NCBI GenBank assembly: GCA_937128055.1 | Contig: CAKZMC010000060.1 | Span: forward strand, 687 to 64,686 | Source of the DNA: an uncultured Actinomycetes bacterium | GTDB taxonomy: Bacteria; Actinomycetota; Geothermincolia; Geothermincolales; RBG-13-55-18 | DNA: 64,000 nt | Reading direction: 5' to 3' | Shown here: piece after piece, positions 4,771 through 51,848 of the stretch | Layout of the letters: each line of letters opens with the position of its first letter | Position numbering within the stretch: position 1 is the first letter of the stretch | The notes under the pieces: generated by a model | The model's input: the letters and a program-made list of their open reading frames with translations, nothing else | Told to the model about the DNA's origin: nothing | The model's database searches: none | Program-made: the position numbers and the translations under genes

Positions 4771-4998
4771 GGACTTGCTCCTTTCCGGTCGCGCCGGCCG
4801 GCCTCGCGCTCCTTCACGTGTATAGTCGGCAGAAGGGCGGGTTTGTTGAGCGATGTGGTGGTGTAGCCGGCCACCAAGGAATAGTGGCATTGCCGGGGGT
4901 AAGGCACAAGGCGGAAAGGCGCGAAGCCCTTTCTCGCAGCGGGTGCCGCCGCGATCGTTTACTATATTAAAGGGAGCAAACGGCGAAGGGGAGGAGGC

Positions 4999-5862
4999 AT
5001 GCCGAGGGAAAAGGCCATCGAGGCGGAGAACATAGCCTATTCCTACGGTGACACCCAGGCGGTGGACCACATCTCCTTCCACGTGGAGGAAGGGGAGATA
5101 CTGGGCTTCCTGGGCCCCAACGGCGCCGGCAAGACCACCACCCTGAAGATGCTGGTGGGGCTCCTGACCCCTCAGGAGGGTAGGATCTCCGTCCTCGGCA
5201 AGGACATCGTGAAGGAAAAGGGCGAGATCCAGGCGCGCATAGGCGTCTGTTTCGAGGAGAAGAGCCTCTACGAGGAGATGTCCGCCGCCGCCAACCTCAA
5301 GTTCTTCGCGGCGCTCTTCGGCGTGCGGGACCTCGACGTCGCGGCCCTGCTGGAGCGGGTGGGGCTTTCGGACGCCAGGAAGGATCGCGTGGCAAATTAT
5401 TCCAAGGGGATGAAGCAGCGCCTCATGGTGGCCCGGGCGCTGGTCGGCCGGCCCCGCGTCCTCTTCCTCGACGAGCCCACCGACGGCCTGGACCCGGTGT
5501 CCTCCGAGGCCATACGCGAGGTGATCCTGGAGGAGAAGGGAAAGGGGGTCTCCGTCTTCCTCACCACCCACGACATGATGGAGGCGGACAAGCTCTCCGA
5601 CCGCGTGGTCTTCCTGAGCGAGGGCAGGATAGCCGCCTGCGACACCCCCGAGAACCTCAAGCACCGCTACGGCAAGAGGGTGCTCAAGGTGCGCTACCAC
5701 CGGGACGGGGAGCTGGCGGAGGAGGAGCTCCACCTGGAGGACGCGGACACGGGCCGGCGCGTGCAGGAGATCATCGCGACCCGCAGGGTGCTGGACATGC
5801 ATACCGAGGAGGCCACCCTGGAGGATATCTTCATCCTCTTGACGGGGAGGGGGCTGGCGTGA
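4999..5862 (+). CDS. ABC transporter ATP-binding protein (ABC-2 exporter type)
   Basis: Walker A GPNGAGKTT, signature YSKGMKQRL, Walker B VLFLDEPTDGLD, H-loop TTHDM. Confidence 0.9.
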   Translation: MPREKAIEAENIAYSYGDTQAVDHISFHVEEGEILGFLGPNGAGKTTTLKMLVGLLTPQEGRISVLGKDIVKEKGEIQARIGVCFEEKSLYEEMSAAANLKFFAALFGVRDLDVAALLERVGLSDARKDRVANYSKGMKQRLMVARALVGRPRVLFLDEPTDGLDPVSSEAIREVILEEKGKGVSVFLTTHDMMEADKLSDRVVFLSEGRIAACDTPENLKHRYGKRVLKVRYHRDGELAEEELHLEDADTGRRVQEIIATRRVLDMHTEEATLEDIFILLTGRGLA

Positions 5863-22560: not shown

Positions 22561-23676
22561 TCAACCTCCGAGTTCCTCCAGCCAGCCCAGGATGACGGGA
22601 TATACTTCCTCCTGGACTCTTTTCCCCATCACCAGGTCCGTGTGGCCGTACCCCGCGAAGTTCTCGAAGCGCTTGCGTCCGCTTGCCACCAGCTCGTAAC
22701 CGTGCGCGCGGATGTTTTCCGCCCCCACGAAGTCCAGGGTCCCGGTGATGAAGAGAAGGGGCAGGGTGATGTGCGCCATGCGTTCCGTGTAACTGCATGC
22801 GCGCCGGAAGTCCCGGAAGTCGCGGTCGCGCACGAGGGAGAGTATCTGTGCGGTCATGCGCGTGGTGACGTTGTCGGAAGCCCATCTCAGGAGGCTGTAA
22901 CCCACTTCCGGGTATACGTTCTCCCTGTTGTAGAGGAAGATGGCGATGGGGCCATGCATCGCCAGCACTCTTCCCAGGCGCGGGAAGCGCGCGACGAGGT
23001 CACCCAGCCGGCTGACGGGAAGGAGGGGAGACGCCTTTTCCAGCAGTCCGCACAGGCGGATGAGCGCGCGGACGGAGGCCTCGAAGAAGGGGAGGCGGGA
23101 GAGGGTCGCCACCCAGGCGCCCCCGCCGTGGTAAAAGGCAGGAGGGCTTCCGATGGTGATCCCTCCCAGGAGAGAGCGGTTCCTCTCGGCAGCCAGCAGG
23201 GGATCCAGCGACACCTGGGAGCCGCCTTCGCCGGGGGCGATGCGAGCGCCGGCGAGGTACATGTAGAGCACCATTCCTCCCATGCTGTGTCCTATCCACA
23301 CGGGCTTCTTGCCCGTGGCCAGGCTCACCCCGTCCACCAGGGCCGGCGCGTCCAGGGCGGCGAGGTGGTCGACGGAGTGGAGCCAGCCGTTCGTGTCGCT
23401 GCGGTAAGGCGCCCTGCCGCATCCCCGGAAGCTGGAGATCCACACGTCGTAACCACGCTCCGCCAGGAAGAGAGCGAGGTTGTGTCCGCGGTGGGGCAGG
23501 TCGAATTCCAGGCCGTTGCCCGTGTAGCCGTGGACGAGGATGATGGGCTGGGCGCCCTCCCTGGCGTACCGTTTGAGGCGCAGGGTCACGCCGTCCCCGG
23601 TGTGGAAGCACTCGCAGCGGACCTCCAGGCCGGAGCCGGGAGCGACCTCCTCCGGGTTAAAGGGAATTATTTCCAT
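22561..23676 (-). CDS. Alpha/beta-fold hydrolase
   Basis: MEIIPFNPEE...PIILVHGYTGNG... nucleophile elbow GHSMGG. About 371 aa. Start at the internal ATG; the track ORF's first 124 aa are an artefact. Confidence 0.8.
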   Translation of the reverse strand: MEIIPFNPEEVAPGSGLEVRCECFHTGDGVTLRLKRYAREGAQPIILVHGYTGNGLEFDLPHRGHNLALFLAERGYDVWISSFRGCGRAPYRSDTNGWLHSVDHLAALDAPALVDGVSLATGKKPVWIGHSMGGMVLYMYLAGARIAPGEGGSQVSLDPLLAAERNRSLLGGITIGSPPAFYHGGGAWVATLSRLPFFEASVRALIRLCGLLEKASPLLPVSRLGDLVARFPRLGRVLAMHGPIAIFLYNRENVYPEVGYSLLRWASDNVTTRMTAQILSLVRDRDFRDFRRACSYTERMAHITLPLLFITGTLDFVGAENIRAHGYELVASGRKRFENFAGYGHTDLVMGKRVQEEVYPVILGWLEELGG

Positions 23677-24093
23677 GTCCCGGGACCGTGAAGCCGTATG
23701 GGAGCAATCCATCGTCCACCTCCGTGTGATGCGGGAAGGCGCGCATCGCCCAGCCCGCCGTCCGTATCGTGCAAAGGAGCGGCTCGCCTCGCCCCTTACC
23801 GCGGCTTTCCTCGCGGCCACGCCCCGCCGCCGGGGCCGTTCTGCGTCGTGCGCCCTCATGCGAAGCGCCATCATTTTATCATTTGCCGCCGCGGGGAAGG
23901 CGGGTTGCCCGGGGAGCTGCCGGAGGTTCCCGGGCGGCGAGCGGCGTGAATACGCGGGAAGGAACGGGACGGCGGGGAGGCCTGTCCACGCAACTCCGGG
24001 AGGTGCGCCGGCGATTGACGGAGAGGCTGCCCGCCAGTAGAATGTCATTACCGACCGTTAAGTAAAATCCTCGTCAAGCAGGGGAGGGAGTGG

Positions 24094-24681
24094 ATGAACA
24101 AGGCACGTTGGGAGGAGATACTGTCCGTGGCCGCACGCCTCTTCCGCGAGAAGGGGTATCGCGCCACCACCATGGAGGACATCGCAAGAGAGCTCCGGGT
24201 GACAAAGCCTGCCCTTTATTACTACATCGACACCAAGCACGATTTGCTCTACGCCATCTGCGGGGCGGCAATCGAGCGGCTCATGGAGGGGGCCAAGAAG
24301 ATCATGCGCGAGGACGGTTCGGTGGAAGATAAGCTGCGCCGCCTCATCGCCTGGCACGTGAACATGTTCTCAGCGAACGGCGACGTGATCGCCGTGTACC
24401 TGGCGGACGAGAACGAGCTTGCCGAGGATAAGCGGAAATTCATCCGTTCCCGGAGCCGGGAGTACGAGTCGTTCTACCGGGAGCTCATGGAGCGGGGCAT
24501 CGAGGAGGGCAGGTTCCGGGAGCTGGACGTCCCCATGGCCGTGCGCGCCATATCCGGCATGTGCAACTGGCTCTCCGTCTGGTTCCGCCCGGGAGGGAAG
24601 TACACGGCGGAGGAGATCGCGGAGATATTCTCCGACCTCTTCCTCCGCGGGTGCGCGGCTGCGGCGGGCGGGGAGGCGTGA
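24094..24681 (+). CDS. TetR/AcrR-family transcriptional regulator
   Basis: LFREKGYRATTMEDIARELRVTKPALYYYIDTKHDLL is a TetR HTH. Divergent from the hydrolase and upstream of the DUF35/thiolase cluster. Confidence 0.85.
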   Translation: MNKARWEEILSVAARLFREKGYRATTMEDIARELRVTKPALYYYIDTKHDLLYAICGAAIERLMEGAKKIMREDGSVEDKLRRLIAWHVNMFSANGDVIAVYLADENELAEDKRKFIRSRSREYESFYRELMERGIEEGRFRELDVPMAVRAISGMCNWLSVWFRPGGKYTAEEIAEIFSDLFLRGCAAAAGGEA

Positions 24682-24775
24682 CGGGGGGCCGGCGTAGATG
24701 GCGCGGCCGCGCGTCGTGAGCGGGCGGTTTTCCCGGGGCGGAAAGCAGCCCGCTGGGTGAAGGGAGGTGCGGGGA

Positions 24776-25246
24776 ATGGAGGACTGGAGAACGGGCCAGG
24801 AGATCCTGGTCATGGAGGGCAGGATCAAGGTCCCCTACCGCTGGGCGGCGGGAGAGACGGGGACCCGCTACCTGCAGGCCCTGCGGGACGAGATGAGGTT
24901 CCTGGGCACCAGGTGCCCGCAATGCGGCGTCGTCTACCACCCGCCGCGCCGCCACTGCCCCGACTGCGGCACGGAATGCGAGTGGAGGGAGCTTGCGAGC
25001 CGGGGGGTGCTCGTCACCTACACGGTGGTGCGGCGACACCATTCCCAGCTAACGCCCCTCGACATCCCCTTCGCCTACGGGATCATCCGGCTGGAGGGCG
25101 CGGACACCGGTTTCCTGCACCTGCTGCACGAGTTCGCGGAGGGCGAGCTGCGCGCGGGCATGGAGGTGGAGGCGGTCTTCGCCACGGAGAGGGAGGGGAG
25201 CGTACGCGACGTGCGCTACTTCCGGCCCCTGCGGGAGGCGGTTTGA
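24776..25246 (+). CDS. DUF35 / OB-fold protein with Zn-ribbon (thiolase partner; BbsA/ChsH2-like)
   Basis: CPQCGVVYHPPRRHCPDCG Zn-ribbon followed by an OB-fold region. ATG 9 nt after GGGAGG. Confidence 0.8.
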   Translation: MEDWRTGQEILVMEGRIKVPYRWAAGETGTRYLQALRDEMRFLGTRCPQCGVVYHPPRRHCPDCGTECEWRELASRGVLVTYTVVRRHHSQLTPLDIPFAYGIIRLEGADTGFLHLLHEFAEGELRAGMEVEAVFATEREGSVRDVRYFRPLREAV

Positions 25247-26392
25247 ATGGAGCCGGTGGCGGTGGTGGGCGTGGGGATGACCCGCATGGAGCGTGAGAGG
25301 CGCCCGGACGGGTACGCCGACCTGGTTTACGAGGCGGTGTGCCTGGCGCTCGCGGACGCGGGGATGACCATCGACCAGGTGGACAACGTGGTAACGATCT
25401 CCAACGACTTCTTCGACGGCAGGACCATCTCCTCCATGGCCGTGCAGGACGCCTGCGGGTCCTACGACAAGAACATATCCACCGTGGAGGGGGACGGCGC
25501 CTTCGGGGCGTTTTACGGCCTCATGCGCATCCTCTCCGGGAGCTTCGGCACAACCTTGGTCTGCGCCCATCACAAGGGGTCGGAGAGCGACATGTCGCTC
25601 ATCACCAACGCCATGTTCGACCCGGTCTACGAGCGTTCCCTGGGCATAGAGGCGGTGACCTCGGCGGCCCTGCAGGCGCGCGCCTACATGGACAGGTACG
25701 GCGTGAGCGAGGAGGATTGCGCACTGGTCTCCGTGAAGAACCGCGCCAACGCCCTCCGCAACCCGCTGGCCCAGCTACCCCTGGAGCTGACGGTGGAGGA
25801 GGTCATGTCCTCTCCTTACCTCGCCGAGCCCCTCAAGGTCCTGGACTGCTGTCCCGTCTCCGACGGCGCCGCGGCGCTCGTCCTGGCATCGGCCGAGAGG
25901 GCGCGCAAGGCGGCCGGAAAGCCGGTGTGGGTGCGGGGCGTGGCGCACTGCTGCGACGCCTACCACCTGGGCGACCGCGACCTGAGCGACGTACGCGCCC
26001 TGCAGCGGGCGGCGGCGAAGGCCTATTCCATGGCCGGCATCGACGATCCCGCACGCGAGATCGACGTCGTCGAGCTGTACGATGCCTTCTCCTACATGGA
26101 GCTCATGTGGCTGGAGGGCCTCGGATTCTGCGGGCGGGGCGAGGCCGGGAGGCTCACCGCCGGCGGGGCCACCTCCCTGGAGGGGAACACGCCGGTAAAC
26201 GCATCGGGGGGCTGCCTGGCGGGGAACCCGGTGCTGGTTGCGGGGCTGAACCGCATCATCGAGTGCGCCTTGCAGGTGCGGGGAGAGGCCGGCGAGCACC
26301 AGGTGGAAGGGGTGCGCACGGCGGTGGCGCAGGGGATCAACGGCCCCTGCGGCCAATCGCATTGCGTCTGGGTGCTGGGAGGTGAGCGGTGA
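25247..26392 (+). CDS. Thiolase-like protein (SCP-x / nonspecific lipid-transfer protein family)
   Basis: MEPVAVVGVGMTRMERER...NASGG near the C-terminus. SCP-x thiolase architecture, paired with DUF35. Confidence 0.85.
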   Translation: MEPVAVVGVGMTRMERERRPDGYADLVYEAVCLALADAGMTIDQVDNVVTISNDFFDGRTISSMAVQDACGSYDKNISTVEGDGAFGAFYGLMRILSGSFGTTLVCAHHKGSESDMSLITNAMFDPVYERSLGIEAVTSAALQARAYMDRYGVSEEDCALVSVKNRANALRNPLAQLPLELTVEEVMSSPYLAEPLKVLDCCPVSDGAAALVLASAERARKAAGKPVWVRGVAHCCDAYHLGDRDLSDVRALQRAAAKAYSMAGIDDPAREIDVVELYDAFSYMELMWLEGLGFCGRGEAGRLTAGGATSLEGNTPVNASGGCLAGNPVLVAGLNRIIECALQVRGEAGEHQVEGVRTAVAQGINGPCGQSHCVWVLGGER

Positions 26393-27582
26393 TGGGAAAG
26401 AGAGTGGCCGTGGTGGGCGTGGGCATGACCAGGCAGCGCTCCTCGCGCCCCGACGTCAACGGGCAGGAACTCATCCACGAGGCGGTACGCGCCGCCCTCG
26501 CGGACGCGGGGATGAAGCGGGATGACATCGACGCCGTGGTCATCGGCAACATGGACCACTTCGAGGGCATCAACTACGTGGACACCTGGTCCGTGGACGG
26601 CAGCGGAGCTCTCATGAAGCCCATCATGAAGCTGACCACCGGCGGCACCACCGGGTCCACGGTGGCCATGGCCGCCTACTACCACGTGGCCTCCGGGCTC
26701 TTCGACCGGGTGTTGGCCATCGGGTGGGAAAAGAACTCCGAGTCCGACACCACGGGGGCCATCATCACCGCCTTCGATCCCTTCTGGGACCGCCCCATCT
26801 TCGCCGGTGCGGTGGCGGGCCTGGCCCTGGAGGCAACCCAGTACATGCACCTGACCGGGGCCACGGAGGAGGACGCAGCCTACGTGGCGGTGCGCGAGCG
26901 CAGGCACGCCCTCAACAACCCCTTCGCCCACCTGCACATCAACCTGACCGTCGAGGACGTGATGAACTCACCCTACCTCTCCTGGCCGGTGAAGATGGGC
27001 GACATGTGCCCCCGCACCGACGGGGCCTGCGCGCTGGTCTTCGCGTCCGAGGATCTTGTGGAAGAATTTCCCAATCAACCGGCGTGGATCCTGGCCGTGG
27101 CCGACCGCCACCTCTGGGCCTACACCAGCGACCCCTACGTCAACCAGGCGCTGGAGAACGGCTGGTGGTTCCCCGCCCTGGAGTGGGCGGCCCGGGAGGT
27201 CTACGACAAGGTGGGGGTCAGGGAGCCCCTCAAGGAGATCGACGTGGCGGAGCTCTACCTGCCCTACTCCTTCGCGGGGCTGCGCTACATGGAGTCGCTG
27301 GGCTTCTGCCCGCGCGGAGGCGGCCCGGAGCTGGTGCGCTCGGGGGCCACCGACATGGGCGGGGAGTGCCCGGTGAACCCCTCGGGCGGGGTCATGTCCT
27401 CCAACGCCATCGGGGCCACGGGGCTCTTGCGGGTGGCGGAGTGCGCCCTGCAGATACAGGGGCGGGCGGAGGACCGCCAGGTCCCGGACGTGAGGCTGGC
27501 GCTGGCCACCGGCTTCGGCGGCTGCTTCTGGTCGGACGTGCTGCTCATGGGCAGGGAGAAACCGGAAAGGTCACGGGGGTGA
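26389..27582 (+). CDS. Thiolase-like protein (SCP-x family), second copy
   Basis: MMGKRVAVVGVGMTRQ...NPSGG. A diverged paralogue of the preceding gene. ATGA overlap with it. Confidence 0.85.
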   Translation: MMGKRVAVVGVGMTRQRSSRPDVNGQELIHEAVRAALADAGMKRDDIDAVVIGNMDHFEGINYVDTWSVDGSGALMKPIMKLTTGGTTGSTVAMAAYYHVASGLFDRVLAIGWEKNSESDTTGAIITAFDPFWDRPIFAGAVAGLALEATQYMHLTGATEEDAAYVAVRERRHALNNPFAHLHINLTVEDVMNSPYLSWPVKMGDMCPRTDGACALVFASEDLVEEFPNQPAWILAVADRHLWAYTSDPYVNQALENGWWFPALEWAAREVYDKVGVREPLKEIDVAELYLPYSFAGLRYMESLGFCPRGGGPELVRSGATDMGGECPVNPSGGVMSSNAIGATGLLRVAECALQIQGRAEDRQVPDVRLALATGFGGCFWSDVLLMGREKPERSRG

Positions 27583-27587
27583 GGGAG

Positions 27588-28094
27588 ATGGCCGGGGAGA
27601 AGAACGGGGAGGGAAAGGAAGCGAAGGAGGAGAGGAAGGAGCTGATCAAGCTGGAGAGCGGCGAGGCGGAGCAGCCCTTCCGCTGGTCGGCGGGGACCTA
27701 CGGGTCGCGTTTCCTCAGCGAGTTGCGGGACAATTGCAGGTTCGTGGGGGTCAGGTGCCCCTGCTGCGGGAGGGTCTACGTGCCCCCGCGCCGCGTCTGC
27801 GGGCCCTGCTTCCGGGAACTGACGGAGCTGGTGCCCGTCTCGGATGAGGGCGAGGTGATCACCTTCACCGTGGTAAGCTTCGGGTTCGTGGACCCCTCCA
27901 CCGGACGGCAGAAGCCGGTTCCCTACGGGTACGCGGTCATCAAGCTGGACGGCGCCGACACCTACATCCTCCATTACCTGGACGAGACGGACCCGGGAAA
28001 GATAAAGGTGGGAGCCAGGGTGAAGGCGGTCTTCGCGGAGGAGCGCAGCGGCAGCATGCTCGACGTGAAGCACTTCGCCCTCCTCCGGGCATGA
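27588..28094 (+). CDS. DUF35 / OB-fold Zn-ribbon protein, second copy
   Basis: CPCCGRVYVPPRRVCGPCF Zn-ribbon plus OB-fold. ATG after GGGGTGAGGGAG. Stop overlaps the next gene. Confidence 0.8.
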   Translation: MAGEKNGEGKEAKEERKELIKLESGEAEQPFRWSAGTYGSRFLSELRDNCRFVGVRCPCCGRVYVPPRRVCGPCFRELTELVPVSDEGEVITFTVVSFGFVDPSTGRQKPVPYGYAVIKLDGADTYILHYLDETDPGKIKVGARVKAVFAEERSGSMLDVKHFALLRA

Positions 28095-28138
28095 ACGGGG
28101 CCTGGCCCCCTTCGTGCCTGCGCGTCGGGGAGGTGGAC

Positions 28139-28912
28139 ATGGAAGGCGACGCTTTCAGGGTGGAGAAGGAGGAAGGGGTAGCCCGTTGCACCATGGACGG
28201 GCCTAACATGAACGCTCTGGGCGTGGAGATGGTCACGGGGATGTTGGAGGGCCTGCGCCGTGTCCTGGACGACGAGGAGGTGCGGGTCATCGTCATCCGC
28301 GGCGAGGGGGGGAACTTCTCCGCCGGCGCCGACCTCTCCCTCATGGGGGAGAAGATGGACCCCGCCCTGCTCGCGGAGACCATGCGCGCCATGGGCCGGC
28401 TCATCCGCGAGCTGCACGAGGGACCCCGGCCGCTCATAGCCGAGGTGGACGGGTGGACGGTAGGAGGGGCCTTCGGCCTGGCCATGGCCTCGGATATCAC
28501 CTACGCCACGGAGCGCGCCCGCTTCTACCTGAGCTTCGTGCGCATCTCCCTGGTCCCCGACTTCGGGTCCGCCTATTTCCTGGCCCGCCGCGTGGGCCTG
28601 GCGCGCGCCAAGGAGATCGCCCTCACCGGGCGCGTTATCGACGCCGAGGAAGCCCTGCGCATCGGCATGGTCAACCGCGTGTTGGACCACGGGGAGATCT
28701 CCGGCGAGGTGATGAGGTTGGCGAAGAGGCTGGCGGGAAGGCCACCGGACATACTGGCGCATACCAAGCGCTTCGTGAACACGGCCTTCACCGTGGACCT
28801 GGGAACGCAGCTGGACCTGGAGGCTTATCTCCAGTCCCTCAACGTGACCACCCCGGAGCACCGGGAGGATGTGAGGAAGTTCCTGGAAAAAGCCGGCGGC
28901 GGAGGAGGATGA
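28139..28912 (+). CDS. Enoyl-CoA hydratase/isomerase (crotonase family)
   Basis: IRGEGGNFSAGADLS oxyanion-hole motif, DGWTVGGAFGLAMASD. Start at MEGDAFRVEKEEGVA, which has GGGGAGGTGGAC upstream. Confidence 0.85.
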   Translation: MEGDAFRVEKEEGVARCTMDGPNMNALGVEMVTGMLEGLRRVLDDEEVRVIVIRGEGGNFSAGADLSLMGEKMDPALLAETMRAMGRLIRELHEGPRPLIAEVDGWTVGGAFGLAMASDITYATERARFYLSFVRISLVPDFGSAYFLARRVGLARAKEIALTGRVIDAEEALRIGMVNRVLDHGEISGEVMRLAKRLAGRPPDILAHTKRFVNTAFTVDLGTQLDLEAYLQSLNVTTPEHREDVRKFLEKAGGGGG

Positions 28913-29121
28913 GGAAACGCCGCGGCGTCATCGCGGGAGGGGGAAGGGGAAAGCGAGCTGCCGGGGAACGGCGGTGAAGGCGGCGGCGTGGCACGGAAGA
29001 GGCGTGCGGAGGGTCCGGGCCGCGGCGCTCGTCATGAGGAATCATCGTGGAGAGACATGGCATATGCCGAGTATCTCGGCAACGAAAAGGCGTGCGGAGC
29101 ATGCACGGGAGGTAGGTTGAG

Positions 29122-31767
29122 ATGAAGGATTACGACGTGGTGGTCATCGGCGCCGGCCTGGGGGGTCTCGCGTCTGCGGCGTTCCTGGCCAAGGAGGGGA
29201 AGAGGGTGCTGCTGCTGGAGAGGCATTACGTGCCCGGAGGTTACGCCACCTCCTTCCTGCGCGGCCGGTTCGAATTCGAGATCTCCCTGCACGAGCTGTC
29301 CGGCCTGGGCGACGAGAAGAACCCCGGACCCCTGTGGAGGATGTTCAAGGAGCTCGGGGTGACGGAGAAGGTGGAGTTCCTCCCCATCCCCGAGTTCTAC
29401 CGCTGCGTGCTGCCCGACGTGGACCTGGTGGTTCCCACGGGAAGGGAGAACTTCGAGGCCGCGCTCTGCGAGCGCTTCCCGCACGATGCCGAGGGGATCA
29501 GGGAATTCACCGACATCATGTTCAAATTCGCCGAGGAGGCGCTGCGGGCCAACCGCGTGGGCATGAAGATGGTCATGGAAAACCAGGAAGAATTTCCCAC
29601 CCTGCTCACCTACTTCGGGCGCAGCCTGAAGGAGGTGAGGGACCCTCTCATCAAGGACCCCGCGGCGCGCACCGTGCTCGATGTCATCTGCGGGTACTAC
29701 GGCAACCCGCCGTCGCGGATCTCATTCCTCATCTACGCCCTGGGGACGGCCAGCTACATACGCTTCGGGCCCTGGCACGTCAAGGGAAAGTCGCAGGCCC
29801 TCTCGCAGGCTTTCATGGACCGCATTGAGGAGATGGGGGGCGAGGTCTGGCTGCGCAACGGCGCCCGGCGCATCCTGGTCGAGGGAGGGCGGGTGAAGGG
29901 CGTGGTTGCCCAGGACGGCACGGAGATCGCCTGCCCGGTGGTGGTGAGCAACGCCAACCCCTACGTCACCTGCCTGGAGCTCATCGGCAAGGAGGACACC
30001 CCCGACTGGTACCTGCGCAGGTTGGGCGCCTGGTCGGGAGGGAACTCCACCGTAAACCTCTACCTGGGCGTGGACTGCCCCTACCAGGACCTGGGGCTCT
30101 TCACCCACGAGACCTTCTGCAGCGACAGCTACGACGTCGACGGCGACTGGAAGAAGATGCGGGCAGGAGAGGTCCTGGAACCCTCGGACGTCGCGGTGAC
30201 CGCGTACAACACGGTGGACGACGAGTTCTCCCCGCCCGGCACCTCGTCCCTGGTGTGCACCTTCATCGCCTTCGCCGATCCCTGGCTGAAGCTGCCGCCG
30301 CAGCGCTATTTCGAGACCAAGCAGCGGGTGGCGGAGCGCGCCCTGGAGCTGGCGGAGCGCGTGGCCCCCGGACTGCGCGACCACATCGAGGTCATCGAGG
30401 TGGCCACCCCCCTCACCAACATGCGCTATTCACGCAACCCGGCGGGGAGCATCATCGGTTTCGACGAGACCTTCGCCGGCAGCGGGGCGGTGCGGCTGCC
30501 GGCGGAGGGGCCGCTGGCGGGGCTCTATTTCTCCGGTGCCTGGGTGAACATCGGGGGCGGCTACGAGCCCTCCCTCTATTCCGGGTTCCTCACCGCGGGC
30601 AGGGTCCTCAGAGACATGGAGAAGGGCGGCCCCGGGGCAGAGGCCATGCAGAAACTACGGGAGCAAGTGGAAAAACAGGTGGAGGGCGCCGAGCTTATGG
30701 AAAGCCCCCTGGTCCGCGTGGAGCAGGCCCTCGCGGGGCTGCATCCCGAGCGGGTGAAGCTCCGGGTTGCGGAGGTCATAGACGAGACCGCGAGCGCCAG
30801 GACCCTGCGCATGGTGGCGGCGGAGGGGAGGCTCCCCGGCTTCTGCGCCGGCCAGTACGTCAACCTCTTCTGCGAGATAGGCGGCATCGCGACCTCCCGC
30901 CCCTATTCCATCTCCTCCCCTCCGGGGAAGGATTTCTGGGACATAACCGTGCGCCGCATGCCGGGAGGTTTCGTCTCCGACTTCCTCCTGGACAGGGTGA
31001 AGGAGGGCGATGTCTTTCTTTCCACGGGACCGTCCGGGAGCTTCTACCACGAGCCCCTCATGGACACGAGCGACCTGGTCTTTCTGGCGGGAGGCTCGGG
31101 CATAACCCCCTTCGCCTCCATGATCCGGGAGGCGGCGGAGAAGGGCACGGACCTCACCATGCACCTGCTCTACGGCAGCCGGGACCCGGACGACGTCATC
31201 TTCGGGGAGGAACTCCGCAGGCTCGCCGCCGAGCACCCCTGGTTCGCCTGCGACCTGGTCATCTCCGAGCCGCCGCAGGGATACGAGGGCAGGTGCGGCA
31301 TGCTGGACGCGGAGACCATCCGCGCGCTGGTGGGAGAGGTGGCGGGCAAGACCTTCTACCTCTGCGGCCCCGCTCCCATGTACGCCCTGTGCGAGGAGGC
31401 CCTCCTCTCCCTGGGGGTGCCGCGGCGCAGGATACGCCGCGAGGCCTACGGCCCTCCGCAGGACATCACCACCGAGCCGGGATGGCCGGGGCTGGACCCC
31501 GACACCGTCTTCCAGGTGACCGAGGAGCGCAGCGGCAGGACCTTCCCCGCCCGCGCCGGGGAACCCCTCATGAACTCCATGGAGAGGGCGGGTCTGGTGG
31601 TGGAGGCCGTGTGCCGTTCCGGCGAGTGCAGCGTGTGCCGCACGCGGCTGCGTGAGGGCCGGGTCTTCGCGCCGCAGCGGGTGCTCAAGCGCTGGGTGGA
31701 CGAGAAGGCGGGCTTCATCCACCCCTGTATGTGCTACCCCCTCTCCCACCTAACAATAAAGATTTAA
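29122..31767 (+). CDS. Tri-domain redox fusion: CrtI/phytoene-desaturase-like FAD oxidoreductase + ferredoxin-NADP reductase-like (FAD/NAD) + plant-type 2Fe-2S ferredoxin
   Basis: N-terminus MKDYDVVVIGAGLGGLASAAFLAKEGKRVLLLERHYVPGG (GxGxxG dinucleotide fold, CrtI-like length about 500 aa). Middle RPYSISS...GGSGITP (FNR-like RxYS and NAD motifs). C-terminus CRSGECSVCRTRL...HPCMC (2Fe-2S). A single 881-aa ORF. Confidence 0.85.
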   Translation: MKDYDVVVIGAGLGGLASAAFLAKEGKRVLLLERHYVPGGYATSFLRGRFEFEISLHELSGLGDEKNPGPLWRMFKELGVTEKVEFLPIPEFYRCVLPDVDLVVPTGRENFEAALCERFPHDAEGIREFTDIMFKFAEEALRANRVGMKMVMENQEEFPTLLTYFGRSLKEVRDPLIKDPAARTVLDVICGYYGNPPSRISFLIYALGTASYIRFGPWHVKGKSQALSQAFMDRIEEMGGEVWLRNGARRILVEGGRVKGVVAQDGTEIACPVVVSNANPYVTCLELIGKEDTPDWYLRRLGAWSGGNSTVNLYLGVDCPYQDLGLFTHETFCSDSYDVDGDWKKMRAGEVLEPSDVAVTAYNTVDDEFSPPGTSSLVCTFIAFADPWLKLPPQRYFETKQRVAERALELAERVAPGLRDHIEVIEVATPLTNMRYSRNPAGSIIGFDETFAGSGAVRLPAEGPLAGLYFSGAWVNIGGGYEPSLYSGFLTAGRVLRDMEKGGPGAEAMQKLREQVEKQVEGAELMESPLVRVEQALAGLHPERVKLRVAEVIDETASARTLRMVAAEGRLPGFCAGQYVNLFCEIGGIATSRPYSISSPPGKDFWDITVRRMPGGFVSDFLLDRVKEGDVFLSTGPSGSFYHEPLMDTSDLVFLAGGSGITPFASMIREAAEKGTDLTMHLLYGSRDPDDVIFGEELRRLAAEHPWFACDLVISEPPQGYEGRCGMLDAETIRALVGEVAGKTFYLCGPAPMYALCEEALLSLGVPRRRIRREAYGPPQDITTEPGWPGLDPDTVFQVTEERSGRTFPARAGEPLMNSMERAGLVVEAVCRSGECSVCRTRLREGRVFAPQRVLKRWVDEKAGFIHPCMCYPLSHLTIKI

Positions 31768-31787: not shown

Positions 31788-31805
31788 GATACCCCCTGGG
31801 GTATC
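31788..31805. terminator. Perfect hairpin GATACCC-CCTG-GGGTATC about 20 nt after the fusion-gene stop (no U-tract)
   Basis: 7-bp inverted repeat with a 4-nt loop just downstream of the TAA at 31765-31767. Preceded, not followed, by a T-run, so at best a non-canonical terminator. Confidence 0.25.
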
Positions 31806-38238: not shown

Positions 38239-38615
38239 CTTCGGTCGCCCCCCGCCGTCTTTTCCGCTTCGCTTTCAGGTTTTCCGGTAGCGCGACCCGC
38301 GGGCTCTTTTCCCGCGGCCGCTCTGGTCTCTTGCTTTAATCGACCTCTCATCGGCGCGCCTTAACCGTAAGCGGGGAAGCGGGTTTGGCCCGGGGCCTTG
38401 CTGGCCTCCGGCTTCATGGCGGCTCTCAGGGGCCCGCGCTCTCGGCGCTCGCCGGCCGCGGCAGGAGAGCCGCCCCTGGCAAGAGAGGGCGCTCCGTCAC
38501 GCCCCGGCCAGGGGGGAGAATCCCCGCCGTCTTCGCGGGGAACGGGTTCCTGCAGGGAGCAAAACGGGTGGATGCTAAAATAGAAGCGTATCCGTCCACA
38601 GGGAGGAGAGGAAGT

Positions 38616-40979
38616 ATGGAACCGTCGAGCGATACCGCCGCATGCGGCGTGCGCTTCCTGCGCATAAAGGAAGCCCTTCTGTCCACGCCGGTGCATCTCT
38701 GCCCCGAGAGGGCGCTCCTCGTCACGCAGTACTTCAAAAAGCACGACGACCCCTCGGAGCCGATGCCGGTGCGACAGGCAAAGGCCTTGCGCCACATCCT
38801 CGCCAACAAGTCGGTGCATATCTATCCGCACGAGCTCATCGTGGGCAACGTGGGTTCCTACCGCATCTCGGCCATCACGCAGCCGGAGCTGGCCGGCGTC
38901 TTCATGAGCGAGGACCTCCTCTGGATCGAGCGCAGAAAGACCACTCCGCTGCGCATATCCTGGCCCGACCGCATGAGGCTGCTCTTCGGCGTTATCCCCT
39001 ACTGGCTCACGCGGAACATGAATTTCCGCGCCTTCCGGGACAAGCGGCACCTCGCGCGCTACGTGCGTGAACAGTTGCGGCCCGCCTACTACCTTATCAA
39101 CGAGGCAGGAGGCATCGGCCACTTCCTACCCAACTACGAGAGGATGCTCAGGGAGGGCATCGAGGGATACCTGGCAGGCATGGAGGGGAAGGAGGGGGAA
39201 TTATACCGCGCCGCGCGCATCGCCTGCGAGGGCCTGGAAATTTATGCCGGGCGCCTCGCCGAGGAGGCCGATAGGATGGCGGGAAGCGAGGCGGACCCGG
39301 GGCGCCGGGAGGAGCTGCGCGAGATCGCTCGCATCTGCCGCAAGGTACCCCGGCAGCCGGCGCAAACCCTCCACGAGGCGCTGCAGTCGCTGTGGCTGAC
39401 CCATCTGGCCGTCAACCTGGAGAGCCTCAATTCGGCCATATCCTTCGGGCGCGTCGACCAGTACCTCTATCCCTATTACCGCCAGGACGTGGAGGAAGGG
39501 CGGCTCGACGCGGCGAGGGCCAAGGAGCTGCTGCTCTCCTTCAGCGCCAAGGCGACGGAGCACGTCTTCCTGCTCTCGGAGAGGATCAGCCAGTATCACG
39601 GCGGCTACCTGGTGGTGCAGGCGGCCATCGTGGGCGGCACCGACCGTGAGGGGAAGGACGCCGTCAACGAGCTCACCTACCTTTTCCTGGAAATCATGGA
39701 GGAAGCGGGGTTGCGCGACCCCAACTACCAGGCTCGCGTCCACGCGGGCTCCCCGCCCGAGTACCTCCTCCGCGTGGCGGATGTTGCCCGCAAGGGGAAG
39801 GGCGTCCCCGCCGTGTTCAACGACGAGGCGGCGGTGGCCTCCCTGGTGCATCACGGCTACCCCCTGCGGGAGGCGCGCAACTACGCCACGGTGGGGTGCG
39901 TGGAGCTGGCCCTCCCCGGGATCAGCTTCCTCTCCACCGACGCCGCGCTTTTCAACCTGCCCCTCTGCCTGGAGCTGGCGCTCAACGAGGGCAGGCGCTT
40001 CGGCCGCCGGCGCAGGGTGGGAGCTCCCACTCCCGGCCCCGGTAGCTTCCGGGACATGGAGGACATCATCGAGGCCTTTCGCCGCCAGGTGGATGCCATG
40101 GTGGACCGCATGGTCCGTGATTTCCAGGTAGTGGAAAGAGGGAACCGTGATTATCACCCCACGCCGCTCTCCTCCATGCTGGTGGAAGGCTGCCTGGAAG
40201 CGGGCAGGGACCTTACCGAGGGCGGGGCCAGGTACAACGCGAGCGGCATACAGGGGGTAGGAGTAGCAGATGTGGCCGACTCCCTGGCCGCGCTGCACGA
40301 GGTGGTTTTCCGCCGGGGTAAGTACACCGTGGAGGAGATTGTCGCGGCCCTGCGGGAAGACTTCGCCGGACAGCGGCGCTTGCAGGCGGAGCTGCTCAAA
40401 GCCCCGAAATACGGCAACGACCACCCGTTGCCGGACGGGTACGCCGACCTGGTGGTGCGCATATTCCACGACTCTCTCGCGCGCCACAGGAACACGAGGA
40501 GCGGGCCTTACGTCCCCGGTTTCTATTCCGTCACATGCCATGTGGCCTTCGGTAAGGAGGTGGGGGCCCTTCCCAGCGGGCGCCGCGCCGGCGAGACGCT
40601 GGCGGCCAGCCTGGGCCCGGCGAACGGGTGCGACCGCCACGGCCCCACCGCCGTACTGAACTCCGTGGCGCGCGTAGACTCGCGCCTCATGCCCAACGGG
40701 TGCGCCCTGAACCTGAGCTTCTCCCCCCATGAGGTGCGTGGAGGGGAAGGGGCGGAGAAGCTGGCGGCCCTCATGCGCAGCTTTTTTGACTGCGGCGGGA
40801 TGCAGGTGCAGTGCAACGTGCTCGACCCCGAGGTGCTGGAGGACGCGCGCCTTCATCCCGGAAAGTACCCGGGACTGGTGGTGAGGGTAGCAGGGTACTG
40901 TGCCTACTTCGACGACCTTCCGGATGCCGCCAAGGGGGAGATCATCTCCCGCTGGAGGCGAGGCGGAAGCGAATGGTAA
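38616..40979 (+). CDS. Glycyl radical enzyme (pyruvate formate-lyase family), substrate unknown
   Basis: Glycyl radical motif RVAGYCAYFDDL 28 aa from the C-terminus. Thiyl-radical Cys loop ATVGCVELALPG. 788 aa. ATG preceded by GGGAGGAGAGGAAG. Confidence 0.9.
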   Translation: MEPSSDTAACGVRFLRIKEALLSTPVHLCPERALLVTQYFKKHDDPSEPMPVRQAKALRHILANKSVHIYPHELIVGNVGSYRISAITQPELAGVFMSEDLLWIERRKTTPLRISWPDRMRLLFGVIPYWLTRNMNFRAFRDKRHLARYVREQLRPAYYLINEAGGIGHFLPNYERMLREGIEGYLAGMEGKEGELYRAARIACEGLEIYAGRLAEEADRMAGSEADPGRREELREIARICRKVPRQPAQTLHEALQSLWLTHLAVNLESLNSAISFGRVDQYLYPYYRQDVEEGRLDAARAKELLLSFSAKATEHVFLLSERISQYHGGYLVVQAAIVGGTDREGKDAVNELTYLFLEIMEEAGLRDPNYQARVHAGSPPEYLLRVADVARKGKGVPAVFNDEAAVASLVHHGYPLREARNYATVGCVELALPGISFLSTDAALFNLPLCLELALNEGRRFGRRRRVGAPTPGPGSFRDMEDIIEAFRRQVDAMVDRMVRDFQVVERGNRDYHPTPLSSMLVEGCLEAGRDLTEGGARYNASGIQGVGVADVADSLAALHEVVFRRGKYTVEEIVAALREDFAGQRRLQAELLKAPKYGNDHPLPDGYADLVVRIFHDSLARHRNTRSGPYVPGFYSVTCHVAFGKEVGALPSGRRAGETLAASLGPANGCDRHGPTAVLNSVARVDSRLMPNGCALNLSFSPHEVRGGEGAEKLAALMRSFFDCGGMQVQCNVLDPEVLEDARLHPGKYPGLVVRVAGYCAYFDDLPDAAKGEIISRWRRGGSEW

Positions 40980-48811: not shown

Positions 48812-50335
48812 TCACGGGACCTCCGCCGCGAAGATGGGCGGCATGGCGAGATGTACGATGGAAAAGCCGTTTCCCAGGATTTCCCCGGCCATGCTCCAGG
48901 CCTGCTCCAGCGAGCCCGCGTACTCGAAACCCAGGCGCTCCACCACCTCGCGGCTCTTTGCCCCCACCACGATCACCCGGCTCAGGTGCTCGAGCGCAGG
49001 GGCTCCCCAGTACCAGACGTAGAAGGGGTGCACCCCGTGGTAGGAGTGGTCTTCCCGGTAAGCGTGGATGAATTCCCCGCGTCTGGCGAAATCCTCCTCG
49101 AAGCGCGCCTCCATCTCCCGTGCATCCCGGGTCTGGGGGAGCACCCGCTCGAAGAACTCGATGTAGGGAAGGTGATGGCGCTGGTGGAAACCGGGCAGGA
49201 AGGGCTGCATGAGAACCAGCACCCCTCCCTTGCGCACCACCGGCCGCCCGAGGTGCATGTTGAAGACGTATCCCAGCGCCGCGTTCATGGCCAGCAGGGG
49301 GTTCATGCGCGAGAAGGCGGCGTAGGGGCAGATGTTGGGCAAGGCCAGGAAGAGGGCGTCCGCCTGCTCGTCCACCCGCACGTTCTGCTGCCGGAACAGT
49401 GCCTGGAGGGTCTCGGGGTGCACCGCGTCGGGGTTCCCGGCATGCACGGCGATGGGCGAGTAAGCGGCGCGCAGCAGGGAGGAGAAAGCGCTCTTCGCCG
49501 CCTGGGGGAAAGGGCGCGAGACGCGGAAGGGAAGGGGCACCTTCTTCCGCGAGAGGGATAGGTAGCGGTCGAGGGGGCCGGGCCAGACGCGGTTGTTGAG
49601 CACCGTCTCCAGGCTCAGCATGCGGGCGTGGCGGGCGAGGTGCCTTCCCTGCTCCCGCAGGATGTCGTGGAAGCGGCTGCGGGGGTCCATGACCGAGCCG
49701 CCGCTGAGCACGGAGGGGTTGTGATGGGCGCGTATGGACCGGTAGGTCCCCAGGCCCACGAGGTACGATTTCCAGCCCCCGTTCATGCTGGTCCAGTTGA
49801 CGTTGACGTAGACGGTGAGGTCCGATTCCAGCAGCCTGCGGTTGACCTCCACCGGGTATCCATTGGCAGTATTTCCCAGATTCACGTTTCCCGCCGGGTC
49901 TTCGGCGTCGTGGTTGGCGATGCGGTCGGGCCCCATCACCATCCACACCCTCTTCCCCAGCAGGTGCCGGAGTTCCCGTTCCGTCCACTTGCGGTGCAGG
50001 CCCACGGCGCAGACCAGGTTCACGTTCTCCCTCCGCACGCCCTGCGAGAAGAGCTCTTCCAGCACCACCTCCACGGCCAGGCCACGGGGATCCCTGGGCA
50101 CGGGGGGCAGGGGCAGGCAGGGATCGTCGAAGGCGATGGTCACCCGTGAGCGCGGGTTGACCAGCTCGCGCAAGGGAGGGGAGCCCAGAGGCCGGCCGAG
50201 GGCTTCCCTGACCGCTCCCTGGAAATCGGATAAGGCCGGAAGGCAGGAGGGAGCCTCGATGACCCGGGTGCGCTCCGGGAGCTCCACCTGCACGAGGTCG
50301 TCCCCGCAAAAGACCAGCCTGCGCATATCGCTCAC
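48812..50335 (-). CDS. LarA-like (lactate racemase family, DUF2088) protein
   Basis: 507 aa with LarA N-terminal domain features. The alternative-frame ORF 48735..50360 is a Gly/Arg/Pro-rich artefact. Confidence 0.65.
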   Translation of the reverse strand: MSDMRRLVFCGDDLVQVELPERTRVIEAPSCLPALSDFQGAVREALGRPLGSPPLRELVNPRSRVTIAFDDPCLPLPPVPRDPRGLAVEVVLEELFSQGVRRENVNLVCAVGLHRKWTERELRHLLGKRVWMVMGPDRIANHDAEDPAGNVNLGNTANGYPVEVNRRLLESDLTVYVNVNWTSMNGGWKSYLVGLGTYRSIRAHHNPSVLSGGSVMDPRSRFHDILREQGRHLARHARMLSLETVLNNRVWPGPLDRYLSLSRKKVPLPFRVSRPFPQAAKSAFSSLLRAAYSPIAVHAGNPDAVHPETLQALFRQQNVRVDEQADALFLALPNICPYAAFSRMNPLLAMNAALGYVFNMHLGRPVVRKGGVLVLMQPFLPGFHQRHHLPYIEFFERVLPQTRDAREMEARFEEDFARRGEFIHAYREDHSYHGVHPFYVWYWGAPALEHLSRVIVVGAKSREVVERLGFEYAGSLEQAWSMAGEILGNGFSIVHLAMPPIFAAEVP

Positions 50336-50417
50336 CCCCGTCTATCTCGCCGCCCGGCACCTTTCGCCCGTATTCGCGTTCCGGGATGAAGAAAGTCCCT
50401 CGAGCGCGAGGAACGTC

Positions 50418-51608: not shown

Positions 51609-51848
51609 CTCCGCGACCTCCTTCCCCCATGTTGCACCACGAAATCAGCTTCGCTGCCGGATGGAATCAGGATACCACATGCCGGCCGCGGAACGGCAAG
51701 AAGGACCGTCGAGGGTTCCCGCGCGCCCCCGCCCCCTTGCGGGACGTTTACGTGGCGGAAACGGGGATGCGAGGGCCTTGCGATGGTATCATATTGCGTG
51801 ATGCGCCGTGGACGCCCCCTTGCCGGCGCCGAGTGACGGGAGTGAAAC

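Follow-up and report, generated by a model that had tools for sequence, protein, structure and literature searches.

In a 64,000-nucleotide stretch of contig CAKZMC010000060.1, from an uncultured bacterium of the Geothermincolia (the whole stretch hereafter, the window), seven genes form a cluster: a TetR-type regulator, two thiolase-fold proteins (Thl1 and Thl2) flanked by two DUF35 proteins, a crotonase-fold protein, and an 881-aa redox fusion. Two conclusions are held with high confidence, namely that Thl1 and Thl2 are not thiolases, and that what look like two DUF35/thiolase pairs are one conserved heteromeric alpha/beta four-gene unit (hereafter, the core). We class the core, as the best fit, with the heteromeric thiolase-fold aldol-lyases of the Ltp3-Ltp4 type, of which it would be a new variant that has split DUF35 genes and occurs in anaerobe lineages. 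By analogy with such enzymes, we think that on balance it would cleave carbon–carbon bonds by a retro-aldol reaction; that its substrate class is an isoprenoid-like or branched acyl-CoA is a tentative suggestion.

A preliminary description of the window had given the gene content, coordinates, plus strand and DUF35-Thl-Thl-DUF35 order of the cluster, and all seven open reading frames (ORFs) and their domain calls were confirmed:

24094-24681, +, TetR regulator, FadR/YsiA-like (TetR_C_24, PF17932, 7.7e-33; TetR_N, PF00440, 6.2e-16)
24776-25246, +, DUF35-A, free-standing Zn-ribbon/OB-fold subunit (zf-ChsH2 and OB_ChsH2_C)
25247-26392, +, Thl1, alpha-type Cys-less thiolase-fold subunit (Thiolase_N and Thiolase_C_1)
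26392-27582, +, Thl2, beta-type Cys-less thiolase-fold subunit (Thiolase_N and Thiolase_C_1; alternative GTG start at 26389)
27588-28094, +, DUF35-B, second free-standing Zn-ribbon/OB-fold subunit (zf-ChsH2 and OB_ChsH2_C)
28136-28912, +, PaaG-type crotonase-fold protein (ECH_1; an alternative ATG at 28091 overlaps the DUF35-B stop)
29122-31767, +, 881-aa fusion (Amino_oxidase/NAD_binding_8, then FAD_binding_6, NAD_binding_1, Fer2)
29122-30627, +, fusion aa 1-502, COG1233/CrtI-like flavoprotein domain
30787-31389, +, fusion aa 556-756, FNR-type FAD/NAD(P)H module
31516-31740, +, fusion aa 799-873, plant-type 2Fe-2S ferredoxin domain

Loss of the thiolase active site

Thl1 and Thl2 both have the thiolase fold (PF00108 and PF22691 are present in each), and pairwise HMMER alignments to solved thiolases gave the first sign that the nucleophilic Cys and catalytic His are lost. 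The residues were checked in a MAFFT L-INS-i alignment with DUF35-linked SCP2-type and classical thiolases of related loci and with fragments of 7yvy, 7pxp_C and 6hrv. The nucleophile column, in the N-beta3/N-alpha3 loop, holds Cys in every true thiolase but in neither Thl1, which reads V-E-G-D, a three-residue deletion and then G, nor Thl2, which reads T-T-G-G86-T-T-G. The HDCF/HDAF motif has become Y278-D-A-F in Thl1 and Y290-L-P-Y in Thl2, with Tyr replacing His, and the His of the GHP motif is Asn327 and Asn339, respectively. The C-terminal loop reads GPCGQSHC in Thl1, including Cys368/Cys373, and GFGGC379 in Thl2. Because the nucleophilic Cys is lost in both subunits, neither can carry out thiolysis. 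The description of these genes as thiolytic modules therefore falls, as the HDCF His is likewise missing and models of the benzylsuccinate-type proteins score far under cutoff (BbsB, 137.5 and 142.7 bits against 750; BbsA, 23.3 against 250).

These replacements are shared by orthologues across the related loci. The Cys-less nucleophile pattern is kept in 78/81 Thl1 and 80/80 Thl2 orthologues. Thl1 proteins, with a mean column identity of ~78%, retain Glu81 (78/81), Tyr278 (69/81) and Cys368 (79/81), and at the GHP position have His in 55/81 and Asn in 26/81, Asn being the residue of the window's clade. Conservation in Thl2 is 80/80 for Gly86, 79/80 for Tyr290, 77/80 for Pro292, and 78/80 for both Asn339 and Cys379. 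The zinc ribbon CxxC...CxxC is found in every DUF35-A (79/79) and DUF35-B (78/78) orthologue.

In thiolase-fold aldolases the nucleophile position is Gly, and a catalytic Tyr opens a Y-D-(H/C)-(F/Y) motif that replaces HDCF (2025 Sal paper, PMC12329534). Thl2 matches this Ltp2/Sal signature with Gly86 and Tyr290, the latter aligned in a fragment alignment to TcLtp2 residue 294, the catalytic Tyr of Ltp2; judging by spacing, Asn339 would sit at the position of Ltp2 Tyr344, Sal Gln352 and the thiolase His. An AlphaFold2 model of Thl2 (pLDDT 84.3, pTM 0.89) gives TM-scores of 0.79-0.87 to SCP2-type thiolases and ~0.8 to the Ltp2/Sal aldolases, with 6et9/6esq among the top fold matches and PhlC, MucABC and TbSLP comparably close.

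A single conserved four-gene unit

A Thl1 relative is carried by 281 species-representative genomes from anoxic lineages. Homologues (59-90% identity) are spread over Actinomycetota, Thermodesulfobacteriota, Syntrophales, Desulfobacterales, Leptospirales, Chloroflexota, Bacillota and candidate phyla, and the nearest named relatives belong to Candidatus Solincola and to metagenome-assembled genomes (MAGs) of Geothermincolia (83-85% identity). We followed gene order by tblastn over 80 loci, all from MAGs. Wherever the flank suffices, the DUF35-Thl-Thl-DUF35 order is invariant and not due to chance; counted from Thl1 (0), DUF35-A falls at about -480, Thl2 at about +1150 and DUF35-B at about +2320. 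Thl1 and Thl2 share only 41% identity. This synteny, together with the phylogeny below, replaces the two pairs of the preliminary description with one heteromeric unit. In public annotation the genes are called ‘thiolase family protein’ or ‘acetyl-CoA C-acetyltransferase’, and literature searches on the four-gene core, on DUF35 with BKACE and on DUF35 in syntrophs returned nothing relevant.

A second paralogous Cys-less set lies ~6-7.7 kb upstream of the main core in four loci (L052, L066, L067, L087), in the order Thl1'-Thl2'-DUF35-DUF35-unknown-CrtI-like-classical thiolase. Here Thl1' has lost the Glu, Tyr and His while Thl2' keeps TTGGT-G, Y-x-P and N, which argues that alpha is a degenerable partner and that Thl2 (beta) is the probable catalytic subunit.

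Probable kinship with Ltp3-Ltp4

When annotated plasmids were searched at protein level with Thl2, a locus emerged in Tsukamurella tyrosinosolvens that encodes a 309-aa double OB-fold protein and thiolase-domain proteins of 359 and 390 aa, beside genes for acyl-CoA ligase, crotonase and an NMO-family protein. The thiolase-domain proteins are members of NCBIfam PRK07937 (‘lipid-transfer protein’, 593 vs a cutoff of 419) and PRK08313 (734 vs 514). Thl2 and the 390-aa protein are 41% identical and have in common the Cys-less loop, Y-x-P-F-S and S-N-P-I-G-A. On a Rhodococcus plasmid, two acyl-CoA dehydrogenase (ACAD) and two MaoC genes (ACAD-ACAD-MaoC-MaoC) are followed by a degenerate 305-aa partner, a PRK08313-like protein and DUF35. 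Against PRK08313, Thl2 scores 361.8 and Thl1 314.4 (cutoff 514), and against PRK07937 Thl1 scores 201.5 (cutoff 419); the window proteins are thus relatives, not members, of these families.

The layout of the Tsukamurella locus corresponds to that of Rv3521, Ltp4 (Rv3522) and Ltp3 (Rv3523), in protein sizes as well. In M. tuberculosis the gene order is Rv3521-ltp4-ltp3 (PMC6429209). Reviews citing Wilbrink 2012 describe Ltp3-Ltp4 as a heteromeric aldol-lyase, needed solely for sterol side chains with a C24 branch, that releases acetyl- or propionyl-CoA after hydration. In a neighbour-joining tree of limited taxon sampling (32 taxa, 378 columns, 500 bootstraps), all Cys-less subunits form one clade (96%), within which alpha (Thl1, Thl1', PRK07937) and beta (Thl2, Thl2', PRK08313) separate with 89% and 98% bootstrap.

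The core resembles the Ltp3-Ltp4 type in its side-by-side pair of paralogous Cys-less thiolase-fold genes accompanied by DUF35, in a beta subunit that is 39-41% identical and has the motifs T-(G/A)-G, Y-x-P-(F/Y)-S and N-(P/A)-I-G-A, and in its acyl-CoA ligase, crotonase and NMO-family neighbours. It differs in that two separate DUF35 genes flank the pair, whereas the Ltp3-Ltp4 type has one double-DUF35 gene upstream, and in that its alpha subunit is full length with Glu81, Tyr278 and Cys368, whereas Ltp4-like proteins have a deletion and H-A-P-F. Its hosts are strict anaerobes, and its partners are a CrtI/FNR fusion, BKACE and MaoC. With Ltp2-ChsH2 and Sal-Shy (6ok1, 9myr) the core has in common the SCP2-thiolase fold, a DUF35 partner, the missing nucleophilic Cys and the motif-opening Tyr, but Ltp2 and Sal are homodimers whose DUF35 is a domain of a MaoC hydratase, while the core has two paralogous subunits and two free-standing DUF35 proteins. 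The kinship with DUF35-partnered SCP2-type thiolase-fold proteins noted in the preliminary description holds: BbsAB and the archaeal thiolase/HMG-CoA synthase (HMGCS)/DUF35 complex share this fold and partner and give the best PDB sequence and fold matches, but they keep the Cys/His catalytic residues that Thl1 and Thl2 lack, and the cluster has no HMGCS.

A solved ‘thiolase-like protein’ of Sulfolobus tokodaii (ST0096, PDB 4yzo) also lacks the nucleophilic Cys (V-D-N-T-S-G-S-G-G) and keeps the HD motif and GHP, so Cys-less DUF35-clade proteins exist in archaea too; its placement with the Cys-less clade is unstable (38% bootstrap).

An isomerase-type crotonase and a self-sufficient flavoenzyme

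The fifth structural gene, previously read as an enoyl-CoA hydratase, carries the motif GGAFGLAM...FVRISLVPDFG, with Gly and Phe at the two positions of the hydratase Glu residues. Its FVRISLVPDFG aligns to FVRIGLVPDSG of T. thermophilus PaaG and keeps the PaaG-type Asp; in the same alignment, canonical enoyl-CoA hydratases (ECHs) from other loci keep both Glu (GGG-x-E-L ... P-E-x-x-L-G). Its best PDB matches include PaaG of T. thermophilus (3hrx, 6sl9/a/b) and of E. coli (4fzw_C), with only 4jcs, an uncharacterised enoyl-CoA hydratase/isomerase entry, ranking above. From these sequence features the protein is predicted to be a PaaG-type enoyl-CoA isomerase and not a canonical hydratase, by similarity of type and not as an equivalog, its score against TIGR02280 being 166 (cutoff 345). 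It has in common with PaaG (1,2-epoxyphenylacetyl-CoA / delta3,delta2-enoyl-CoA isomerase) F-V-R-I-x-L-V-P-D and the absence of the hydratase Glu pair, and differs in that its locus has no other paa genes. The isomerase signature is common to all Geothermincolia ECHs 3' of the core and to the ECH beside the fusion homologue in a Chloroflexi locus, whereas the ECHs that adjoin the core in Deltaproteobacteria are canonical hydratases. The crotonase as the hydratase of the aldolase was rejected after the motif and PDB comparison.

The fusion is as unusual and uncharacterised as the preliminary description held. Its cofactor motifs, read in translation, are intact: GxGxxG, RPYSISS, GGSGITP and C-x4-C-x2-C...C (CRSGECSVC...C), the last three in the order of the PaaE/phthalate-dioxygenase-reductase-type FNR-[2Fe-2S] reductases. 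The N-terminal part matches PF01593 over residues 13-496, PF13450, and the CrtI structure 4dgk (2.5e-21), and scores 142.6 bits against TIGR02734 over residues 6-502 (cutoff 238); a carotenoid-isomerase model does equally well, also under its cutoff. The C-terminal part (PF00970, PF00175, PF00111) resembles PaaE and benzoate dioxygenase reductase, with 140 bits against the PaaE model TIGR02160 (cutoff 420). At least 120 full-length homologues (56-89% identity) occur in MAGs of Actinomycetota, Deltaproteobacteria, Chloroflexi and Dehalococcoidia, none of them functionally named, and in two loci (L034, L083) the CrtI-like and FNR/Fer2 halves are adjacent separate genes. Distant homologues also occur without the core, in L090 with a ligase, NMO and a PaaG-like ECH, and in L091 and L093 with a divergent TetR_C_24 regulator and a ligase, so fusion and isomerase-type crotonase appear to be a separable module acting on a CoA-activated acid.

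FNR-Fer2 reductase modules normally pass electrons from NAD(P)H, and for this reason we favour a reaction that is reductive or reduced-flavin-dependent (saturation or isomerisation) over NAD+-linked desaturation. A parallel at the level of components exists in the limonene system of Castellaniella defragrans, where the COG1233 flavoproteins CtmAB, the 2Fe-2S ferredoxin CtmE and the NADH:ferredoxin reductase CtmF serve anaerobic monoterpene catabolism. Both combine a COG1233 flavoprotein with a 2Fe-2S ferredoxin and an NAD(P)H:ferredoxin reductase component, in an anaerobic unsaturated-hydrocarbon setting. The Ctm components are separate proteins, however, and CtmAB is a heterodimer with covalent flavin and no Fe-S, whereas the fusion joins one CrtI-like domain to a PaaE-type FNR-Fer2 module.

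In the Chloroflexi MAG locus L090 (3698-9725), the ligase-NMO-PaaG-like ECH genes and the fusion homologue (56% identity) are followed by a 798-aa PFL-like glycyl radical enzyme (GRE) and its activase. It is the only such case seen and may connect the COG1233 fusion with radical chemistry.

Operon structure and regulation

The five structural genes after the TetR gene are tightly coupled and operon-like, and analysis of the junctions bears out the earlier proposal of an operon led by TetR. The TGA of DUF35-A abuts the Thl1 ATG (0 nt), Thl1 and Thl2 overlap by 1-4 nt (TGATG), 5 nt separate Thl2 from DUF35-B, and DUF35-B is joined to the crotonase gene either by an ATGA overlap or, at the 28136 start with its better Shine-Dalgarno, across 41 nt. 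The DUF35-A ORF opens with GTG at 24767; a Shine-Dalgarno precedes the ATG at 24776. A gap of 209 nt lies between crotonase and fusion, and no plus-strand terminator was found in it. The TetR protein scores 70 bits against the Bacillus-type FadR model, under cutoff, and a TetR gene also precedes the core in other Geothermincolia loci (identity 64-78%). One promoter candidate precedes the cluster; a consensus scan found 2 sigma70-like sites where 0.7 are expected:

24015-24043, +, candidate sigma70-like promoter TTGACG-17-TAGAAT upstream of the TetR gene, a 10/12 consensus match only

An inverted repeat with 15-nt arms (AGCGGGCGGTTTTCC / GGAAAGCAGCCCGCT) occupies 24719-24754 in the TetR/DUF35-A gap, just 5' of the Shine-Dalgarno. 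It was considered as a TetR operator or attenuator and dropped, as it is not conserved across 16 related loci. A second hairpin, GATACCC-CCTG-GGGTATC at 31788-31805, lies 21 nt past the fusion stop, has no T-run, and may end the operon. Divergent from TetR is an alpha/beta-hydrolase (Abhydrolase_1/Hydrolase_4; 22561-24048, minus strand), called as a gene of 383 aa in an identical contig; at least 8 Geothermincolia loci carry a homologue (57-66% identity) 4-6 kb upstream of the core, and the protein could be an esterase that releases the acid substrate. The identical contig is present in one ENA assembly and two JGI metagenomes.

Gene neighbourhoods of the core

We surveyed de novo ORF families within ~9 kb of the core in 81 loci; the ORF caller produces antisense artefacts in high-GC loci, so the counts are approximate lower bounds. 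The most frequent families are ACAD (30), CrtI-like proteins (28), acyl-CoA ligase (26) and ECH (22), followed by the beta-keto-acid enzyme BKACE (PF05853; 18), NMO (17), MaoC (12), TetR (12), Liv-type ABC transporters (10-11), classical thiolase (9), SDR (7) and 3-hydroxyacyl-CoA dehydrogenase (HADH; 7). The broad label of the preliminary description, a CoA-ester pathway of unknown substrate, holds.

Two operons recur in Deltaproteobacteria: one with the order substrate-binding protein-ABC-ligase-ABC-core-BKACE and with MaoC and ACAD divergent, the other core-MaoC-BKACE-ligase-ACAD. In several loci MaoC stands directly 3' of DUF35-B, which recalls the DUF35-MaoC fusions Shy and ChsH2, recruiters of Sal and Ltp2. 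The 18 BKACE genes are directly downstream of, or beside, the core (e.g., L049, L057, L060, L069, L075, L082). As a speculation, this pairing may be functional: the cleavage published for Ltp3-Ltp4 would by its structure leave a beta-keto acid. An aldehyde:ferredoxin oxidoreductase and an iron-type alcohol dehydrogenase are found nearby in one locus.

The closest Geothermincolia relatives (L010, L077) have the order ACAD-TetR-core-ECH-NMO-fusion. Compared with them, the window has no ACAD before TetR and no NMO between crotonase and fusion, where the gap (28913-29121) holds no detectable remnant. The preliminary description had seen in the fusion a flavoenzyme in place of an ACAD; given relatives that have both an ACAD and the fusion, the window has instead lost ACAD and NMO.

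Proteins with an SCP2 sterol-carrier-like domain, one of them fused to a flavodoxin-like reductase, are encoded near the core in L023, L024, L031 and L004 (19317-19739). These neighbours hint at poorly soluble, lipid-like substrates.

The glycyl radical enzyme and the wider window

Three further genes of the window had been named as ingredients of an X-succinate pathway:

38385-40979, +, GRE of the PFL2/glycerol-dehydratase family (TIGR01774, 667.8 vs a cutoff of 678.2)
50418-51608, -, family III CoA-transferase, 19 kb from the cluster and on the opposite strand
3949-5802, -, SDR-domain protein, distant, with unrelated genes between it and the cluster

All three genes are real, but they are distant and separated from the cluster by unrelated genes, the GRE is of dehydratase type, and an X-succinate role finds no support. 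The next matches of the GRE are HypD, sulfopropanediol dehydratase (HpsG) and CutC, and it matches none of the X-succinate synthase models. It is flanked by a methyl-accepting chemotaxis protein (MCP) and a PAS histidine kinase and lies 6.6 kb from the cluster, with genes for a sigma factor, a membrane protein, an amidase and the MCP between. A GRE occurs in only 2 of ~90 related loci, and those two are 32-35% identical to the one in the window; a homologue of the activase beside the L090 GRE was sought across the window and not found. With a dehydratase-type enzyme, no synteny and no such activase, the X-succinate/GRE link was rejected.

Elsewhere in the window (48812-53153), a Lar_N (lactate-racemase N-terminal) protein adjoins the family III CoA-transferase and a short AMP-binding protein. 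Lar_N and ApbE genes follow the core in three Syntrophaceae/Deltaproteobacteria loci (L029, L044, L055).

Proposed mechanism

We propose that the region is one catabolic operon, controlled by the FadR-like TetR and composed of two separable modules, which would act on an unsaturated and/or beta-branched, isoprenoid-like acyl-CoA. Support is good for the enzyme classes, whereas chemistry and substrate are deduced. Module 1 (24776-28094) would comprise DUF35-A, alpha, beta and DUF35-B, most likely as a DUF35-alpha-beta-DUF35 heterotetramer that would follow the alpha-beta-beta-alpha plan of solved DUF35 complexes. Like Ltp3-Ltp4, Ltp2 and Sal, it may perform a retro-aldol cleavage of a 3-hydroxyacyl-CoA to acetyl- or propionyl-CoA and an aldehyde, ketone or keto-acid, with Tyr290 of beta as the putative base on the beta-hydroxyl. 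Such a route would serve acyl chains whose beta-carbon is branched or that are otherwise barred from a 3-keto intermediate.

Module 2 (28136-31767) would consist of the predicted PaaG-type enoyl-CoA isomerase and the self-sufficient COG1233 flavoenzyme, in which an electron path would link NAD(P)H, the FNR flavin, the 2Fe-2S centre and the CrtI-like FAD, in a direction that we infer from the type of module. It may reposition, reduce or otherwise process a C=C of the same unsaturated acyl chain, enabling hydration and cleavage. The hydratase and the ACAD that the pathway needs would be encoded outside the window.

Put more ambitiously, and with considerable doubt, the core may be a hitherto unrecognised, phylum-spanning four-subunit aldol-lyase of strict anaerobes for beta-branched or tertiary 3-hydroxyacyl-CoAs barred from the 3-keto form, working with the self-sufficient COG1233 flavoenzyme. 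Isoprenoid, sterol and hopanoid side chains or alicyclic acids may then be substrates. The active site, with Tyr/Asn/Cys from beta and Glu/Tyr/Cys from alpha, may differ from those of Ltp2 and Sal, and the NAD(P)H-linked flavoenzyme may provide O2-free saturation, isomerisation or hydroxylation of the chain.

Evidence against an aldol-lyase, and alternative explanations

Several observations weigh against retro-aldol cleavage. The second catalytic residue of the aldolases does not match, Thl2 having Asn339 for Ltp2 Tyr344, and the third motif position is Pro292 in Thl2 or Ala280 in Thl1 against Cys304 in Sal. Sequence scores lie nearer to true thiolases than to Ltp2 (Thl1, 177 bits vs 7yvy and 117 vs 6ok1), and the fold search with Thl2 has no power to split aldolases from thiolases, DUF35-partnered structures matching about equally; the limited sampling of the neighbour-joining tree counts here as well. 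PRK07937/PRK08313 are equated with Ltp4/Ltp3 on the basis of gene order, protein sizes and a label, ‘lipid-transfer protein’; among homologues of the Tsukamurella protein, none bears an ‘Ltp3/Ltp4’ name. A literature search for biochemical or structural work on this clade, Ltp3-Ltp4 included, found none, so the aldolase chemistry is argued by analogy. No recurrent carboxylase was found among the neighbours searched, and for this reason the published Ltp3-Ltp4 reaction scheme cannot simply be transferred; an Atu/Ltp-style route of carboxylation, hydration and lyase was set aside on the same ground. HADH and classical thiolases adjoin the core in some loci, and the 64-kb window encodes no MaoC, ACAD, NMO, BKACE, HADH or second ECH, and no aldehyde-oxidising enzyme.

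The complex might instead use the thiolase fold for other chemistry. A malonyl- or beta-carboxyacyl-CoA could be decarboxylated (weakly shown for TbSLP), or a beta-diketone or beta-ketoacyl compound could be cleaved by a retro-Claisen or hydrolytic reaction; PhlABC-like C-acyl transfer and a biosynthetic aldol or Claisen condensation are further candidates. The conserved Glu81/Asp83 and Cys368/Cys373 of alpha and Asn339/Cys379 of beta are unlike both known aldolase solutions, BKACE is a frequent neighbour (18/81), and the closeness in fold of PhlC, MucABC and TbSLP points the same way. We nonetheless think such chemistry unlikely, while taking it seriously, as the neighbours are overwhelmingly of the catabolic beta-oxidation type (ligase, ACAD, hydratases, Liv-type uptake transporters), no polyketide or other biosynthetic genes recur nearby, PhlC-type acyl transfer requires Cys, and an aldol-lyase function is assigned to the sole relatives for which there is genetic evidence. 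Alternatively, one of the thiolase-like proteins, or both, could be non-catalytic scaffolds or lipid-binding ‘lipid-transfer’ subunits. Alpha does degenerate in some lineages, as in Thl1', which has lost Glu, Tyr and His, and in the Rhodococcus partner truncated to 305 aa, and inert partner subunits are common in steroid-degrading heteromers (PMC11321319). A pure scaffold is hard to reconcile with beta active-site motifs more than 95% conserved across phyla and with the column identity of Thl1, and we consider it quite improbable; if alpha alone were inert, scaffold and aldol-lyase would be compatible.

That the genes are two BbsAB/SCP-x-type pairs thiolysing a 3-ketoacyl-CoA, possibly after fumarate addition by the GRE of the window, is very improbable. 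In its favour, both proteins have the thiolase fold and DUF35 partners, Thl2 finds its best PDB sequence match in BbsB (143 bits), the window does hold a GRE, a family III CoA-transferase and an SDR, and the L090 fusion homologue adjoins a GRE and activase. This account fails, however, on the nucleophilic Cys missing from both subunits in nearly all of the ~80 orthologue sets, on the sub-cutoff BbsB/BbsA scores, on the type and isolation of the GRE, on the failure to find a homologue of the L090 activase in the window, and on the rarity of HADH near the core (7/81). There is practically no room for a mevalonate-pathway set of archaeal-type acetoacetyl-CoA thiolase and HMGCS. The best PDB sequence match of Thl1 is the archaeal acetyl-CoA acetyltransferase 7yvy (34% identity), and 6et9/6esq are among the top fold matches, but an HMG_CoA_synt domain is absent from the cluster proteins and from the surrounding genes, neither protein has the catalytic Cys, the regulator is FadR-like and the partners catabolic. 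The preliminary description had named clustering with these archaeal enzymes as what would overturn it; the Cys-less proteins form a clade apart from 7yvy (96%).

Significance

Annotation of these Cys-less genes as thiolases is chemically impossible, and metabolic reconstructions that rely on it would go astray for Geothermincolia, Syntrophales, Thermodesulfobacteriota and other subsurface anaerobes. The fusion is a compact, self-sufficient COG1233 redox enzyme that may prove useful as a biocatalyst in anaerobic C=C or allylic chemistry. If the aldol-lyase assignment is true, the core would mark an O2-independent route by which lipids that persist in anoxic sediments, branched or unsaturated ones like isoprenoids and steroid-like side chains, are degraded, and its proteins would be the first tractable, soluble, thermophile-derived relatives of the Ltp3-Ltp4 of mycobacterial sterol catabolism.

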